Counted from the stretch's first letter, positions 5-24,200 are shown. The stretch is DNA of 25,055 bases from Candidatus Nanohalarchaeota archaeon (GCA_017610385.1 JAFCCC010000009.1:1-25055); one strand, 5' to 3'. Notes: generated by a model from the letters alone, not told the origin. Numbers and translations are program-made.

Positions 5-143
5 TGAGCTTTTCAGATAAAAGCTCACGGAAACTTGTTAAGTTTCCTAAATCGGAAATTAATGCATTTCCAATTCAAGCAAAATAAGCCTTTTAGTAAA
101 GGCTTAAGCGAAAACCAAAGAAGAGAATTATTTGTTAATTCTC
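5..143. repeat. Array of five short inverted repeats (hairpins) upstream of the 23S promoter
   Basis: TGAGCTTTT/AAAAGCTCA (5-27), GGAAACTT/AAGTTTCC (29-47), GGAAAT/ATTTCC (54-71), TAAGCCTTT/AAAGGCTTA (85-106), GAGAATTA/TAATTCTC (123-143). Confidence 0.75.
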
Positions 144-216: not shown

Positions 217-258
217 TAGGCAATCTGTCTAGTTTCATCGAGTAAATCGAGTTGGTAT
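217..258 (+). other. 5' strand of the 23S pre-rRNA processing stem with BHB motif
   Basis: TAGGCAATCTGTCTAGTTTC (217-236) is the exact reverse complement of 3203-3222. GAGT (240-243) pairs with GCTT, followed by a 3-nt bulge AAA. TCGAGTTGGTAT pairs with ATGCCAACTCGA. Confidence 0.9.
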
Positions 259-260
259 TA

Positions 261-3180
261 CAGGCCAGATAGTGAATGGCTTGGTTCGAGACGCTGATGA
301 AGGACGTGACAAGCTGCGATAAGCTTTGGGGAGGCGCATGTAGCCTTCGATCCAAAGATTTCCGAATGGGACTTCCCATCATCAGATGATCCGAAAGGAT
401 CGGGAACGCGGTGAATTGAAACATCTTAGTAACCGCAGGAAAAGAAATCAATAGAGATCTCCTTAGTAAAGGCGATCGAAAAGGAGATAGGGCAAACTGA
501 ATCCCTTAATGTGAATTAAGGGAGATGTGGTGTGACCTAAGTTAGATTCTCTATAGTTGAGTTGAAGTGAACTGGAAAGTTCTACCTTAGAGGGTGATAG
601 TCCCGTAAATTAAAACTGGTGAGAATTGATTAGGTTCAAGAGTAAACGGGCTTGGCATTGCTCGGAGAATGTGGGGGTCATCAACCTCCAACCCTAAATA
701 CGTCTCGAGTCCGATAGCGTATAGTACTGTGAAGGAAAGCTGAAAAGCATCCCTAAAAAGGAGATGAAAAGAGCCTGAATTTATCTGGCTATAGTCTGTT
801 AGTGCCCCGAAGGAATGATAATCTACGAAGGAATTAGTCGAGAGGCTATAGTACGAGTAGAGAGTACCAGGGTTCTAACGTGCGTTTCGAAAAACGCGGC
901 AGGGAGTGTGTTTTTCTGGCAAGGTTAATCTTTGTAAAAGAGAAGTCGTAGCGAAAGCGAATGCTTGCAACTTTGTGAGAAGCAACCTGATAATACGGGT
1001 TTAGTCAGCGGAACACGATCCGAAGCCTGTTGATCTAGTCCTGAACAGGGTGAAGCCCATCGAAAGATGGGTGAAGGCCCGAACCGTTGCTGTGGACAAG
1101 CGCTCGGATGATTTGGGATTAGCGGTGATATGCCAATCAAAACAGGTAATAGCTGGTTCCTCCCGAAATGGACCAAAGCCCAGCCTGGAGCGAGATTTCT
1201 AGCGAGGTAAAGCCACTGATCAGGTGTTACGGCCTTTCACGGGTCGGCATCTTGTCAAACTCAGAATTCGCTAGTATCGTAGACCTCTGGAGTCGGGGGC
1301 GTGGGGTAAGCTCGCGTCCCGAGAGGGAAACAACCCGGACTTAGATTAAGGTCCCTAAATACTGGCTAAGTGTAAAGAAAGGTAGTCTTGAGTCTTAGAC
1401 AGCGGGGAGGTTGGCTTAGAAGCAGCCATCCTTTAAAGAAAGCGTAATAGCTCACCCGTTGAGGCTCGGGGCGCCGTAAATGGACGGGGCTAAAGCCAGT
1501 TACCGATATCCAAGTCTTGTAGTATAAACTACAAGAGGTAGGGAGGCGTTCTGCATGGGCGGAAGCACAGGTGTGAATTTGTGTGGACCGTGTAGAAATG
1601 AGAATCCTGCCAGTAGTACCAGCCTAGAGTTGTGAGAATCAACTCCGCCGAAAGGGCAAGGGTTCCCCCGCAACGATGATCGACGGGGGGTTAGTCGATC
1701 CTAATTCGTACCCTAACAGGAGTACGAAGAATGGGAAATCTGTTAATATTCAGATACCACAATAAGCTCTGTTAATCGTTACATTTCTGGATAATCTAAG
1801 TGGAACCATCGTTCCATTTAACCGTATAAATTCGGGGATTATAATGAAGAGATCCGAAGGAAATTGGGAATAGCCTAAGAAATTATCTTGGGTTTAGATG
1901 AATCCTGGAATCATGGAAAATTCGATTAAGCCACTTGTTGTGTTCGTACCCAGAACCAGCACTGGTGCCCTGGCTGAAAAGGCTAAGGTGTCTCGAGTAA
2001 TAATTAGACTTAGGGAATTCAGCAATTTAGCCCCGTATGTTCGCTATAAGGGGTGCCCGAAACCGCTTCGGCGAGTTTTGGGTCGCAGTAACAAGGAGGA
2101 CACGACTGTTTACTAAAAACGTAGCCGACTGCTAGAGAGAAATCTTGTGTATAGTTGGTGACTCCTGCCCAGTGCCAGTACCTGAACCTTTGTTTCAACA
2201 GAGTGAAGGGCTGGTAAACGGCGGCGGTAACTATGACCGTCTTAAGGTAGCGTAATCCCTTGCCAATTAATTGTTGGCCCGCATGAAGGGAGTAACGATG
2301 TCCTCAGTGTCCCAAGTCTAAGCTCGGTGAACTTGTCATACAGGTGAAAAGACCTGTGATATCTAGTGGGTAGCGAAGACCCCGTGAATCTTTACTACAG
2401 TCTGTGGTTGAGGTACGAGTTTGAATGTAGAGTGTAGACAGGAGACGTCGAAGCGATCTCGTCAGGGATCGTGGAGTCGCTAATGGAACACTGTCCTTTT
2501 AAACTTGTACTTCTTACTCGTAAGAAGACATCTGCAGATGGGTAGTTTAGCTGGGGCGGCATCACTCTGAGAAAGCATCAGAGTGGCCCAATGGTCGACT
2601 CAAACCGGTCGGAAATCGGTTGTAGAGTGCAAGGGCAAAAGTCGGCCTGACAGGATTATGAACATTAAGTTTTCCTGACACGAAAGTGTGGCCTAGCGAA
2701 CTCCTGTAATTTTGTTGATGAATTGCAGGAACGACAGAAAAGGTACTCCGGGGGTAACAGGATTGTCTCGGGCGCGAGTCCATATCGACCCCGAGGCTTG
2801 TTACTTCGATGTCGGCTCATCGCATCCTGGCTGTGCAGCAGCAGCCAAGGGTGGGGGTGTTCACCCATTAAAGCGGTTCGTGAGCTGGGTTTAGAACGGC
2901 GCGAGCCAGTTTGGTCGTTAACTGCTAGATATGTTGGTAGTCTGAGAGGAAGATCCATATAGTACGAAAGGAACTATGGAGCGCAGCCTCTGGTGGATCA
3001 GTTGTCCGATAGGGCACGCTGAGTAGCTACGCTGTAAAGGATAAGCACTGAAAGCATCTAAGTGCGAAGCCACCCTCAAAAAGAGACTGCTTAGGCTCTC
3101 CTAAAAGAGGAGTTAATAGAGCGGAAGTGTAAGAATCAAGGCAACGAGATTTTCAGCTCACCGCTACTAATAGCCAAAAA
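261..3180 (+). rRNA. rrl: Archaeal 23S rRNA (ends approximate)
   Basis: Universal LSU motifs: GAATTGAAACATCTTAGTA, GGTAACTATGACCGTCTTAAGGTAGC (H69-71), archaeal GCGAAGACCCC, CTGGGGCGG (P-loop), TCGATGTCGGCTC, sarcin-ricin loop AGTACGAAAGGAAC. About 2.92 kb long and enclosed by a BHB stem. Confidence 0.98.
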
Positions 3181-3181
3181 T

Positions 3182-3222
3182 ATGCCAACTCGAGCTTGTA
3201 GAGAAACTAGACAGATTGCCTA
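3182..3222 (+). other. 3' strand of the 23S pre-rRNA processing stem with BHB motif
   Basis: ATGCCAACTCGA-GCTT-GTA(bulge)-GA-GAAACTAGACAGATTGCCTA, complementary to 217-258. Confidence 0.9.
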
Positions 3223-3317: not shown

Positions 3318-3597
3318 GTCTGAAGAGGTAGAAGGCAGCAGTTCCTTAGGGAATTAGGAAAGTCCCGCCCCCATTAAATTCGTGCCTCTGGGAGAGAGGG
3401 TGGTGAGAACCACGCAACAGTATCAGAAACGTAACTTCACTCAGTATATGCGATGAAATATCGTTTTTTAATCTTAATTGAGAAAAAAATGAAAGAGATC
3501 TCTGAGATGAAGATGAAACGGACAGTCCACGTGGAGCAAGCTTTGTGCGCTTAGTAGAATGCCTTAAACAGAAGCGGGCTTACTCACCTCATCAGAC
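3318..3597 (+). ncRNA. rnpB: Archaeal RNase P RNA (about 280 nt)
   Basis: P1 GTCTGAAGAGGT/ACCTCATCAGAC; P2 AAGGCA/TGCCTT; CR-I AGGAAAGTCCCG; CAGAAAC and TGAAACGG conserved regions; GGAGCAAG; CR-V AACAGAAGCGGGCTTAC. Confidence 0.93.
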
Positions 3598-4145: not shown

Positions 4146-4295
4146 GGGCCTGTAGCTCAGTTGGATAGAGCACCAACTAGGAAAATAACCTAAATGTTTC
4201 TTAGGTGTATGCCTTCTACCAGTTAGAAGAACTGATCCGAAAGGAAATGATTGGAAGATAGCTGGGGGTCGAGGGTTCGAGCCCCTCCAGGTCCG
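4146..4295 (+). tRNA. trnR-TCT: tRNA-Arg(TCT) with two introns (4176-4210 at 29/30; 4219-4259 at 37/38); CCA not encoded
   Basis: Acceptor GGGCCTG/CAGGTCC, D arm GCTC/GAGC, T arm GAGGG-TTCGAGC-CCCTC. Removing both introns restores CCAGC-CTTCTAA-GCTGG. Arg identity elements A20, C35 and G73 are present, and both introns have BHB-like junctions. Confidence 0.92.
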
Positions 4296-4297
4296 AT

Positions 4298-4329
4298 TAA
4301 GCCTTTTTAGTAAAAGGCTTAAGCGAAAA
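4298..4329 (+). repeat. Second copy of the palindromic element TAAGCCTTT(T)-TAGT-(A)AAAGGCTTA-AGCGAAAA (first copy 85-114)
   Basis: Near-identical to 85-114, with one extra T-A pair in the stem. Confidence 0.85.
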
Positions 4330-21204: not shown

Positions 21205-24200
21205 ATGAGAAAGGGATGTATTTTGAAAGAAGTAAGAGTAGTTTTCCTACTTTTCTCTATATTTTTGTTTATCTCTTTATTTTCGCAAAACGTTTTTTCT
21301 TCGTCCTATGACTGGTGGAATGGTTCCTGGAACTATAGAATGGACGTAAATGTGTCAACTTCTACGTATTCCCGAGAAAATTCACCGGTAGAATTATATG
21401 TCAATTTTACAAATGAATTAAGTTCTTTAACCTCAGAAATGTTTGATAATAATTCTGTGAGGGTAGTGGAATATAATGCGACAGGTAGTGTTCTTTATGA
21501 GATTGCTAGTCAATTTGATGAATTGGAAAACTACAATTCTGAGAACGCTGTTGGAACAGTAATTTGGTTATTAAATGGAACAACGGCCGCTAGTGAAACA
21601 AGATACTTTCAAATATATTTTGACACTACCAGCGATTCTAAAACAGAAGCAGATTACAATAGTTTTATTAATTATTCATGGAGTGGGGAAGAAGTTTCTG
21701 TGAATAATTCTGTATTGGAATTAAAAATTGATACAGATAAAAATGATGTTTCTGGGTTGTATTACGCGAAAAGAAGTTCAAAAGAAATCTTTAATGGTGT
21801 GTCCGATACCTATCCAATAGAGTATAGTTCTTACTCAAATGGCTCAAAACTAACATACAATCTAAAAAATAATGCAACAGTTATTTCAGGACCAATCAGA
21901 TTAACAATCACTCAATCAGGAGATGAAATATTATTTGGTGATGCTTCAATCACGACAGGCGAAGCAAACATAACAAAAAAATATTATATATACAAAGACA
22001 ATCCGTGGATTAAAATTAAACATACGCTTACAAACAAAGACGCTAGTTCAATTGAAAGGTATAACGCAGACGTTTGGCCATTAACGATAGATGCTGAGCG
22101 CGGATTTGGAATAGACTTTATGACGTCTCCACAAGAAGACCCATACTCGTGGAGTTCTGTTTATACAACAGCAGGGGAATTGGGATTGGGAGTAATAAAT
22201 CTAAATGAAAGCGGAACAAGTAATTTTCAAGCATATGGTTCAGTAACTTTAGGTTTTGTAGGTATTAGATTAAGCGATTCAACAGTCATTCCTTCTGGAG
22301 ATTCCCTAACAGAAAGTGCGGCGATATTATTTAATAATGAATCAAGTCATACTCCTGTGGAAAATTTAAAAAATAGATTTCAAACACCCTTAACAATAAC
22401 TAAATCAAATTGTGAAACATACACTGCAACTTCAGAAACACTTACACCTTATGAAATCTATAATTTGAATGATAATCTGAATATTCGAGTGAATATTACG
22501 CAAGATACACAAAATTTAGTTAGGTATGTAACTTCTATCTTAGATTTAGGCACAATTAGTGAGTTAGATGATGTATCAGTAATTTTATATGATGATGGCA
22601 CACATGGGGATGTAAGCAATGGGGATTCGATTTATACAAATGAATATTCATTTTTAGAAACTGGTGCTGTAGGTTCTTGGACTATAACCTCTAACGTATA
22701 CGATGGTACGTATTTTCTTTTAAATCAAACTCAAAAAAGTATTGAGCTTTCTAATCAATATTATAGTAATTTGTCAATTGTTAATCCTGCAGGACAAATA
22801 GAACGAACAATTTATGGAAATATTTCAGTAAGCAATTGTAGAAACGACACAGGAATAACTTCTGTGACAGTTAATTGTTCTTATAATGGAACGCAAGTAA
22901 CACAGTATTCTGATACAGGACTTGGAAATTACACCTTAAATTTCACAGCACCATCTACTCCTGGAACATATGAATTAAGTTGTATTATGAGCAAATATAA
23001 CAATTCTGGAACTGATTCTCAATTATTTACTGTTGATAATCCAACTACAAATTTAGAACTTGTATTAACTCCCAATAGTACGATTGTTGAAAATATTACT
23101 CAGAGATACGCACAAAATTTTACAATTAATGTTAGTATAAATAATCCAGGACAAAGTACAGCATATTACTCGAATCTTACACTAAGCTTGCCAGAAAATT
23201 GGACTGCTTATCCTTCGTATTATTATTGTGGGAATATTACCCAAAGCGGTTCTTGTGATCACTCTTTTAATATTACCGTAGCGAAAGCGTATGTTCCTAA
23301 TAATTATATGGTTACTGCTGAAATCAGCTGGATTAATTTAAATACGTCAATAAATTCAACTCAAGATAGCTCAACAATTGAAATAGAAAACACTCCTGTT
23401 TTAGAGGTATCTGAAACGTCAATTAGCGGAATTGTTCCAGAAGGAAGCAGTGCGTTATTAGACAATTTTACAATTAATTCTACAGGAAATGGTAATTTAT
23501 CTACAATAAATTTTACATGCCAAGCTGGAACCGCTTGTGACAATTTGACAATTATTTTTTCTCCAACTTCTTTAATTGGTTTGGAACTATCCAATACGTA
23601 TGAAATTGAGATTAATATTACAGTTCCAGAAGGATTGGATACCGGCAATTATTCAGGCATAATAAATGTTTCTTCTAGTAATGGTGGTTCAGATATATTT
23701 AGTGTGAATATCTCTGTTCCAGAAAGTGATGCATGGTCAATATCCTCTCAAACATGTTCTATTAATGCCTTATCTGATTTCATCGGTTCTGTTTGTAATT
23801 TAACTCTTTCAAATTTAGGTAATACTCAGGTAAATCTAACATTGAGTCCCGAAGAAGGCAACTATACAAAATTAAATGAAACTTCTATTGTAATAAATGC
23901 ACAATCTTCTGCGGTTTTAGAAGTTAGTTATAATTCTACAAACGCGGGTGTGGGCACGTATAATTCAACTTATACAATAAATTCTACAGGCACGCCAACT
24001 CAAAGAACATTAAATGTGTCTTTAAGCATTGTAGTAGGACCAACTATAACTTCTTTAATTGAATTGGAAAATCAGCAGGGAGATTCAGTAAACTTATTAG
24101 CAAATTTGCAGGACTTATCTTTACAAGGCATTAGTACAGTTAATGCAACAATTGTACAACCCAATGGAACTATACAATATGTTAACTTAACAAACATAAC

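Follow-up and report, generated by a model that had tools for sequence, protein, structure and literature searches.

An intron of tRNA-Arg(UCU) as a probable single-kink-turn guide for its own wobble position in a small DPANN-type archaeal genome

The stretch of DNA analyzed here (the window) comprises 25,055 nucleotides (nt) of a Candidatus Nanohalarchaeota genome (GCA_017610385.1, JAFCCC010000009.1:1-25055) and contains one transfer RNA (tRNA) gene, tRNA-Arg(UCU), which is interrupted by two introns. The second of these, intron 2, carries an ordinary bulge-helix-bulge (BHB) splice motif together with an antisense copy of the anticodon loop and the elements of one kink-turn (K-turn). It is probably a C'/D'-type guide with a single K-turn, directing 2'-O-methylation of U34 (Um34) in its own tRNA; it appears nearly certain that selection has shaped the module as a K-turn joined to an antisense element. 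Such a guide, with U34 selected by the N+5 rule, had been proposed in an initial annotation of the window, and the proposal was supported by six sister introns of the same genome, by orthologous tRNA-Lys introns, by a syntenic relative (X1) and by the genes for the protein machinery.

Anatomy of intron 2

Introns were placed using a BHB-based splicing solver, and the products were validated with ARAGORN. The spliced product is a 74-nt tRNA-Arg (anticodon tct). When applied to the unspliced gene, ARAGORN made no call by default and mislabelled the gene as tRNA-Pro once introns were allowed. The tRNA was the sole Rfam match between 4100 and 4340 at a permissive threshold. The features of the gene, in base pairs (bp) and nt, are as follows:

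4146-4295, + strand: tRNA-Arg(UCU) gene with two introns; exons 4146-4175, 4211-4218 and 4260-4295 (Rfam tRNA, 41.9 bits; BHB solver and ARAGORN)
4219-4259, + strand: intron 2, 41 nt, at canonical position 37/38, with the putative guide module inside (perfect hBHBh' motif; BHB solver, and ARAGORN on the spliced product)
4223-4229, + strand: antisense (putative guide) element TTAGAAG (7/7 Watson-Crick pairs with anticodon-loop positions 32-38; A4227 opposite U34)
4230-4231, + strand: spacer AA, 2 nt, setting the N+5 register (exactly 2 nt in all members)
4232-4235, + strand: box D'-like CTGA, the non-bulged strand of the predicted K-turn (from sequence)
4236-4245, + strand: C-stem hairpin of the predicted K-turn, TCC-GAAA-GGA (pairs T4236-A4245, C4237-G4244 and C4238-G4243; loop GAAA)
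4246-4248, + strand: bulge of the predicted K-turn, AAT, 3 nt (from sequence; first base variable among paralogues)
4249-4253, + strand: box C'-like GATTG (G4249/A4250 face A4235/G4234; T4251 faces T4233)
4254-4259, + strand: BHB central-helix strand GAAG and bulge AT, ahead of the 3' splice site (from sequence)
4176-4210, + strand: intron 1, 35 nt, at position 29/30 (relaxed BHB with a 4-bp central and an 8-bp inner helix; no guide module)

Each of the elements on which the initial annotation had built (CTGA, stem, AAT bulge, GA, TTAGAAG and the A4227-U34 pair) was present. The partners of the antisense element are loop positions 38 to 32, i.e. A4260 and then A4218 to C4213. A4227 is the fifth base 5' of CTGA and pairs with T4215, which is U34, the nucleotide that the N+5 rule would select. 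At the sequence level, an internal D'/C' motif is formed by CTGA, a 3-bp capped stem, AAT and GA(U) (4232-4251), with the stem, 3-nt bulge and tandem G.A/A.G that a K-turn requires. T4252-G4253 can pair with A4221-C4220, giving a 2-bp helix (h') that recurs in a tRNA-Lys intron described below. A terminal box C (RUGAUGA)/box D pair was not found in intron 2, which has one CTGA and one TGA-type C' element. It also has only one guide, not the double-guide layout addressing positions 34 and 39.

The same nucleotides take part in splicing. The central helix of the BHB is formed by CTTC (4213-4216) and GAAG (4254-4257), all four pairs being Watson-Crick; the bulges are TA|C and AT|A, and the anticodon stem serves as the outer helix. 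A 6-bp inner helix, CAGTTA (4220-4225) with TGATTG (4248-4253), had been overlooked in the initial annotation. Since the C-like box also supplies the 3' strand of this inner helix, intron 2 is ambiguous when considered by itself. The competing hairpin CAGTT/AACTG that the annotation had pointed out is real (4220-4224/4230-4234). An extension of the guide duplex that it had offered, CCAG with CTGG across a bulged G39, can be paired on paper and has no counterpart in the Lys paralogue.

Sister introns and relatives

The window is contig C6 of a 788-kb DPANN-type archaeal genome (G000; 18 contigs, 32% GC, 93.5% complete). A scan of the whole genome for CTGA, a hairpin, 3 nt and GA located the gene for tRNA-Lys(UUU) (C11:148624-148787), the 37/38 intron of which (47 nt) has its module in the same order as that of the Arg intron: guide TTAAAAG (an exact complement of the loop), CT, CTGA, a GGTC/GACC stem, the bulge TGT, GATTGG and the BHB strand. 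Between the two introns the guide covaries with its target, G opposite C35 in Arg becoming A opposite U35 in Lys; the hairpins are wholly different yet both pair, and the boxes are invariant. The BHB inner helix of the Lys intron is merely CA/TG, so the fold common to both introns is a 2-bp h', U.U, A.G and G.A pairs, a bulge of 3 nt and a capped stem; the guide forms a loop in the 5' strand. The Lys gene (locus L073) has a second intron (44 nt, position 53/54, in the T-arm), which has a BHB with a 4-bp central and an 8-bp inner helix.

Judged from sequence, at least seven introns of this genome are candidate self-guides, all with position 34 as the predicted target: those of tRNA-Arg(UCU), Lys(UUU), Glu(UUC), Leu(UAA), Leu(CAA), Met(CAU) and Trp(CCA). 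Position 34 stands at N+5 in all seven, and each guide fits its own anticodon loop, pairing with 5-7 loop bases and always covering 32-36. A strict K-turn pattern is present in four (stems TCC/GGA in Arg, GGTC/GACC in Lys, GAAAAC/GTTTTC in Met and GTCC/GGAC in the Trp gene on contig C17). A T lies opposite A38, across the splice junction, in 5/7 guides (P = 0.03), a hint that the spliced loop may be the target. The seven hosts consist of four tRNAs that are known targets of 2'-O-methylation at position 34 (Nm34) and three split-box tRNAs with U34 (Arg, Lys and Glu). Antisense, box and K-turn were absent as a module from 12 of the 17 + 2 introns examined in this genome. No tRNA-Gln gene was found in the assembly.

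Several host genes have peculiarities of their own. There are two tRNA-Trp(CCA)-like genes (C13:67127-67376 and C17:23520-23757, the latter L075) with introns of about 170 nt that share a hairpin-plus-tail segment in opposite orientation. By the same tests, the module was absent from the C13 copy (177-nt intron) and present only in the C17 copy, whose terminal BHB strand pairs at 3/4 positions according to a manual reading. In tRNA-Leu(CAA) (C13:47608-47721, L077), the true 3' splice site has a weak BHB (GAAG against the loop sequence CTCA, 2/4 pairs). The internal guide copy TGAG, followed by AT, would form a perfect BHB there, with a cut immediately 5' of CTGA.

The recurrence of the module was assessed in two sets of canonical introns from this genome. 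In the first (16 curated introns), a complement of loop positions 32-36 followed by NTGA was found in four (Leu-UAA, Lys-UUU, Arg-UCU and Glu-UUC); the spacer was 2 nt in all four cases, the other spacings from 0 to 6 gave no match, and deliberately mismatched pairings of tRNA and intron gave 2/240. A whole-genome scan added tRNA-Leu(CAA). In the second set (17 introns), second copies of the 4-nt loop-complementary strand were counted with no condition on the downstream sequence. There were eight such copies, in seven introns, and NN plus NTGA followed six of them, Met-CAU now being included. A complement of loop 32-35 with 2 nt and NTGA behind it thus occurred in 6/17 introns, compared with a mean of 0.048 and a maximum of 2 when the intron interiors were shuffled 20,000 times; the binomial P is 5e-8 at the intron TGA frequency of 0.035 per position. 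It is only at the level of the genome that the motif is evident beyond chance. A strict K-turn pattern (NTGA, a hairpin with 3 bp or more, no more than one of them G.U, and NNT-GA) matched the genome 165 times and the reversed genome 94 times. Four of these matches fell in tRNA gene regions (0.6% of the genome), where about 1.0 was expected, and all four were sense, intronic and preceded at 2 nt by a complement of their own loop. Outside the tRNAs, a K-turn-like string on the minus strand of the window (21890-21919: CTGA, a 4-bp AT-rich hairpin, TCT and GATTGG) is probably a chance occurrence in coding sequence.

For comparison, 70 genomes of one order (G000 and 69 relatives) were used. An anticodon-loop pattern for tRNA-Arg(UCU) matched 51/70 genomes, G000 being unmatched because its intron 1 exceeds the gap that was allowed. 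The 30 loci returned were parsed into 27 distinct genes, five without and 22 with a 37/38 intron (37-182 nt). None of the 22 introns resembles intron 2: the longest extra complement to the anticodon stem-loop of the same gene measures 4-5 nt in 18 introns, 6 nt in three and 7 nt in one (L055), and CTGA stands beside such a complement in 0/22. Among 40 tRNA-Arg introns of relatives (UCU and CCU) there were 19 second copies of the strand, with NN-NTGA after 0/19 (Fisher p = 9e-5), and the K-turn pattern occurred in 0/40. A search pattern for the Arg module had seven matches, of which only that in G000 lay in a tRNA gene; 0/6 of the others had a K-turn. A specific Arg/Lys-type pattern matched G000 alone, twice. 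Close homologues of intron 2 were not found in two metagenome scans with exon-only patterns (no loci, then four loci with unrelated short introns), in a scan of genome-collection contigs with an exon-only pattern (one bacterial contig) or in a DNA search over 61 genomes (exon fragments only).

The Lys module is more widely distributed. A pattern consisting of loop, guide, NN and NTGA, with no K-turn demanded, had 14 matches in the 70 genomes, which is the level of a control pattern. Within tRNA-Lys(UUU) genes, 4/4 matches have CTGA, a hairpin, 3 nt and GA, compared with 0/10 of those outside tRNAs (Fisher p = 0.001). The four genomes are G000, G004 (family f5), and G046 and G035 (both family f4), i.e. 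three families, and their stems are GGTC/GACC, GGGA/TCTC, GCCAC/GTGGC and GCCACG/CGTGGC. The sequence GATTGG is common to the Arg and Lys introns of G000, and the Lys introns of the relatives have GACGAA in its place. From the shared GATTGG, the Arg module is taken to be a retargeted copy of the local Lys module. As far as these sequence comparisons reach, the predicted Lys guide is old within the order and the predicted Arg guide is confined to the lineage of G000.

The syntenic relative X1 is represented by a 1,767-nt contig. Across the tRNA and both introns it has two differences in 151 nt, one in the intron 1 loop (T4186C) and one at the first base of the K-turn bulge (A4246G); guide, boxes and stem are identical. 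In the surroundings, the RNase P RNA differs at 21/297 positions and the downstream gene at 21/116 and 13/97, and both intergenic flanks are replaced. No joint was seen at the intron in this contig, the contigs being of unspecified kind. A search for RNA runs containing the locus found none. In another pair of relatives, L039 and L012, the introns drift (5/58 differences).

Loss of Elp3, the distribution of which bears on U34 modification in these lineages, was considered as a driver of the modules and was discarded. No Elp3 (TIGR01211) was detected in G000, a genome 93.5% complete; across the order, it scored above the cut-off in 51/70 genomes. There is no clean correlation with the modules, since family f3 lacks both a true Elp3 and the Arg module, and G004, G046 and G035 have Elp3 together with the Lys module.

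Proposed mechanism and competing readings

The protein components of a box C/D ribonucleoprotein (RNP), by which the initial annotation had proposed to check the guide, are all encoded in G000: fibrillarin (266.5 bits), Nop5 (121.5 bits, Nop) and L7Ae (99.8 bits). Nop5 has 284 amino acids and is of a short form, closest to that of A. fulgidus (1nt2_B). A Nop5 without its dimerization domain, entertained as the cause of single-K-turn guides, was unsupported given this short A. fulgidus-like form. Canonical box C/D small RNAs (sRNAs) were not recognized in the genome: a strict regular expression returned none, and loose C-then-D pairs numbered 13, with about 16 expected. Half-units numbered 27, compared with 9 in the reversed genome, and no convincing two-unit sRNA was seen. 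For stand-alone single-K-turn hairpins, complementarity to 16S and 23S ribosomal RNA (rRNA) equalled the control distribution, giving no signal of rRNA guides. The leader of the 16S rRNA (C9:281-1748) contains, near position 1951 of C9 on the minus strand, a C-box-like CTGATGA, a 13-nt spacer and CTGA; this could be a half guide embedded in the leader, for which no rRNA complement of at least 9 nt was found.

The proposed mechanism gives intron 2 a dual character, that of an ordinary BHB-spliced intron and that of a minimal methylation guide. The antisense element, the 2-nt spacer, the D' box, the capped hairpin, the 3-nt bulge and the C'-type GA(U) would fold into one K-turn. L7Ae would bind the K-turn and recruit Nop5-fibrillarin to form an RNP, the guide would pair with loop positions 32-38, and 2'-O-methylation would fall on the U34 ribose, opposite the fifth guide base upstream of the box. 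Because the guide and the 3'-terminal GAAG share the same loop bases, methylation-competent and splicing-competent states would be mutually exclusive. The intron may act in cis before splicing or, once excised, in trans.

A number of observations weigh against this mechanism. The intron offers one K-turn and lacks both a terminal C/D pair and a second guide, and its guide duplex is 7 bp (5-7 bp among the members) compared with about 10 bp in canonical RNPs. Its degenerate C' box sets U against C at a place where canonical boxes pair G-C, and since no canonical box C/D sRNA was recognized, a local box consensus for calibration is lacking. Two structures compete with the K-turn of the Arg intron: the BHB inner helix of 6 bp and the CAGTT/AACTG hairpin. 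The hairpin is what RNAfold predicts, K-turns being beyond what it can score. Among the sister introns, those of Glu-UUC and Leu-CAA are stemless with a K-loop-like spacing (box gaps of 3 and 5 nt, respectively), the stem of Leu-UAA is a weak one of 3 bp, and the guide of Leu-UAA is palindromic, so that a copy is indistinguishable from a complement. The conservation in relatives that the initial annotation had envisaged was borne out for the guide and boxes, which are identical in X1, and by the Lys orthologues in three families, but the Arg module itself occurs in just 1/70 genomes of the order. As proof of guide function the conservation in X1 was rejected, because in another congeneric pair an unrelated Arg intron (L050/L051) is kept equally well (2/58 differences, with 9/75 in the exons) and the conservation is therefore non-specific. 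Finally, a complement of 32-35 followed by 2 nt is also exactly what makes up a BHB on its 3' side, namely the central strand, two bases of bulge and the cut, so the N+5 register could come from splicing geometry; the 5' part of each member intron is indeed formatted like the minimal introns of G000 (11-16 nt). The splice geometry leaves unexplained NTGA, the hairpin, the 3-nt bulge, GA and the covariation. It suggests a route by which such guides originate, and it is compatible with a role in splicing control.

In that role, a selected module would serve the folding of the pre-tRNA or the control of its splicing: L7Ae would sit on the K-turn and the antisense element would hold the anticodon loop, as a chaperone or as a timer in alternation with the BHB. 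L7Ae is also a protein of RNase P and of the ribosome. Such a function would account for the fact that antisense element and BHB strand vie for one set of loop bases, for the identity of the module register with BHB geometry, for the shortness of the duplex by the standards of a C/D guide, and for the poor terminal BHB strands in Leu-CAA (2/4) and Trp on C17 (3/4), where the internal copy is perfect. It gives no reason, however, why the hosts should be tRNAs with known Nm sites (Leu-CAA, Leu-UAA, Met and Trp) and split-box U34 tRNAs, or why the box-guide distance should be exactly that needed by the N+5 rule, and twelve other canonical introns are spliced without the module. Half-mer guides of like layout are, moreover, described as active in vitro in the part of PMC9670817 covered here. 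On balance we consider splicing control unlikely, but worth keeping in view. Less likely still, and in our judgment distinctly improbable, is a vestigial origin: a second insertion would have entered a minimal intron (built of 1 nt, the loop, a 4-nt central strand and 2 nt) at the 3' splice site, leaving the splice strand duplicated and the boxes without present function. In format, the 13-nt minimal introns of G000 (Asn, Arg-TCG) are matched exactly by the first 13 nt of intron 2, the extra segment begins 2 nt after the internal complement in each member, and, by a manual reading, the 28-nt remainder of the Arg intron could form a BHB of its own with the inner helix TGATC/GATTG. That alternative inner helix is, by the same kind of reading, not kept in Lys or Met, and insertion leaves unexplained the NTGA after 6/8 copies and the compensatory hairpin with 3 nt and GA seen in paralogues and orthologues. 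The 19 duplicated strands in introns of the relatives have no boxes, and duplication alone therefore does not create the module.

Intron 2 might also be a BHB intron of the ordinary kind, with CTGA, a hairpin and GA in its A/G-rich interior by coincidence. The BHB inner helix requires TGATTG in any case, and one intron in a relative (L055, 1/22) likewise has a 7-nt extra complement. A 13-nt identity between the hairpin of intron 2 and 23S rRNA (387-399) was set aside as a GNRA hairpin coincidence, the match being merely a tetraloop hairpin. CTGA followed by GATTGG is not enriched genome-wide relative to other spacings (20, 18, 16, 9 and 17 by bin); it was accordingly rejected as a genome-wide element, the match at C9:6842 lying inside an open reading frame. 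Chance is nevertheless strongly disfavoured, to the point of being scarcely credible, by seven introns in one register, by the shuffle and cross controls and by the Lys orthologues.

A broader reading of the genome can be put forward tentatively, although we would not favour it over its negation: this DPANN lineage would possess a suite of self-guiding tRNAs, in which each tRNA needing Nm34 carries its own one-K-turn guide in its canonical intron and free-standing sRNAs are scarce. Such a suite, under the same reservation, would cover all the split-box U34 tRNAs recovered as well as Leu-CAA, Met and Trp. Because BHB geometry (a 4-bp helix plus 2 nt) coincides with N+5, any canonical intron could be converted to a position-34 guide; the route would be duplication of the 3' splice strand and acquisition of a K-turn directly behind it. 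Guide RNAs would thereby have a generally available evolutionary origin in introns, and selection a reason to preserve tRNA introns. On this view a single compensatory base change would recently have redirected the Lys(UUU) guide, the older of the two, to Arg(UCU).

Genomic setting and comparison with known systems

The other RNA genes of the window are those for 23S rRNA (248-3192) and RNase P RNA (3321-3594; 136 bits), and the tRNA gene at 4146-4295 is its only one according to Rfam. The RNase P RNA lies 129 nt 3' of the 23S rRNA and about 550 nt 5' of tRNA-Arg on the same strand, and with the three genes so close together co-transcription is possible. Their order is kept in X1. A conserved hairpin element (AAGCC, a T-run, a short loop, an A-run and GGCTT, followed by AAGCGAAA) has 18 copies in the genome, two of them in the window (86-113 and 4299-4328) and others on contigs C3, C9, C11, C12 and C13. 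One copy each adjoins the 3' side of tRNA-Arg and of tRNA-Leu(GAG), and several lie within a 276-nt "intron" that ARAGORN called in a tRNA-Pro of C9.

The published system closest to the proposed guide is the euryarchaeal pre-tRNA-Trp intron (Haloferax volcanii; Pyrococcus sR50), which, in the parts of the sources covered, is likewise a 37/38 intron, antisense to its own tRNA and directed to position 34 by N+5; it too works with L7Ae, Nop5 and fibrillarin, and its guide fold and BHB are mutually exclusive (PMC7994747, PMC11408192, PMC4090602). As described there, the Trp intron is a complete sRNA: it has the four boxes C, D', C' and D, its two guides address C34 and U39, and the median intron length is about 65 nt. 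Intron 2 has one K-turn and one 7-nt guide in 41 nt, its host is tRNA-Arg(UCU) and its putative target a uridine; and modules are carried by seven tRNAs of G000, not by Trp alone. Reviews of 2014 and 2024 name the tRNA-Trp intron, in the passages covered, as the sole tRNA intron guiding its own tRNA (PMC11408192, PMC4090602). The 66-nt intron within Nanoarchaeum equitans elongator tRNA-Met also belongs to a DPANN archaeon and a non-Trp tRNA, has one box D and an imperfect box C, was proposed as a methylation guide and was seen as an abundant stable RNA (Randau 2012, PMC3491384). It concerns a single tRNA, with target and register not worked out in the passages covered, and G000 adds Arg, Lys, Glu and two Leu candidates. 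The initial annotation knew of no description of such an arrangement; with the Trp and N. equitans Met introns in print this is too broad, and it holds for Arg, Lys and Glu, for which the full-text literature searched yielded no intron guide, nor any suite spanning several tRNAs.

Guides to position 34 are also known as free-standing RNAs. According to the portion of PMC7994747 covered, C/D sRNAs of Pyrococcus target this position in tRNA-Leu(CAA), Leu(UAA), Met and Trp, that is, the same position in four of the same tRNAs, with two K-turns and guides of about 12 nt; the putative guides of G000 sit inside the intron of the target itself. According to the section of PMC7668247 covered, archaeal tRNAs contain Um34 and related Nm34 nucleosides. 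Ordinary archaeal 37/38 BHB introns have the same perfect hBHBh' motif as intron 2, for which removal by the splicing endonuclease is likewise expected, but they lack the module, as do the 12 introns of G000 mentioned above and 40/40 tRNA-Arg introns of the relatives. If the proposal is correct, one 0.79-Mb genome would have seven self-guiding introns, including U34 guides for Arg, Lys and Glu, which would provide a concrete function for many DPANN tRNA introns and a reason to retain them, and would suggest how guides evolve from splice motifs. In practical terms, the module constitutes a searchable signature for the annotation of tRNA introns and the prediction of Nm34 in uncultured archaea.

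A canonical archaeal box C/D sRNA has two spacers of about 12 nt and a duplex of about 10 bp, compared with the single 7-bp guide of intron 2. In the reduction to one unit, the nearest counterparts are half-mer C/D RNAs, consisting of one C/D set and a guide, which work in vitro and select the base opposite guide position 5 (PMC9670817, in the part covered). Engineered half-mer and monopartite guides (Yang et al. 2020, as cited in the same part of PMC9670817) have one C/D set or stem and a 5' guide, pair their target with guide position 5 and function in vitro with archaeal Nop5 and fibrillarin; they are artificial, with 12-nt guides, whereas the module described here is natural, pairs through 5-7 bases and stands beside a splice motif. 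Introns such as intron 2 would, if the reading is right, be half-mer guides of natural origin with one K-turn, a design known elsewhere, in the passages covered, from engineered RNAs, and would offer a minimal natural substrate for studies of C/D RNP assembly.

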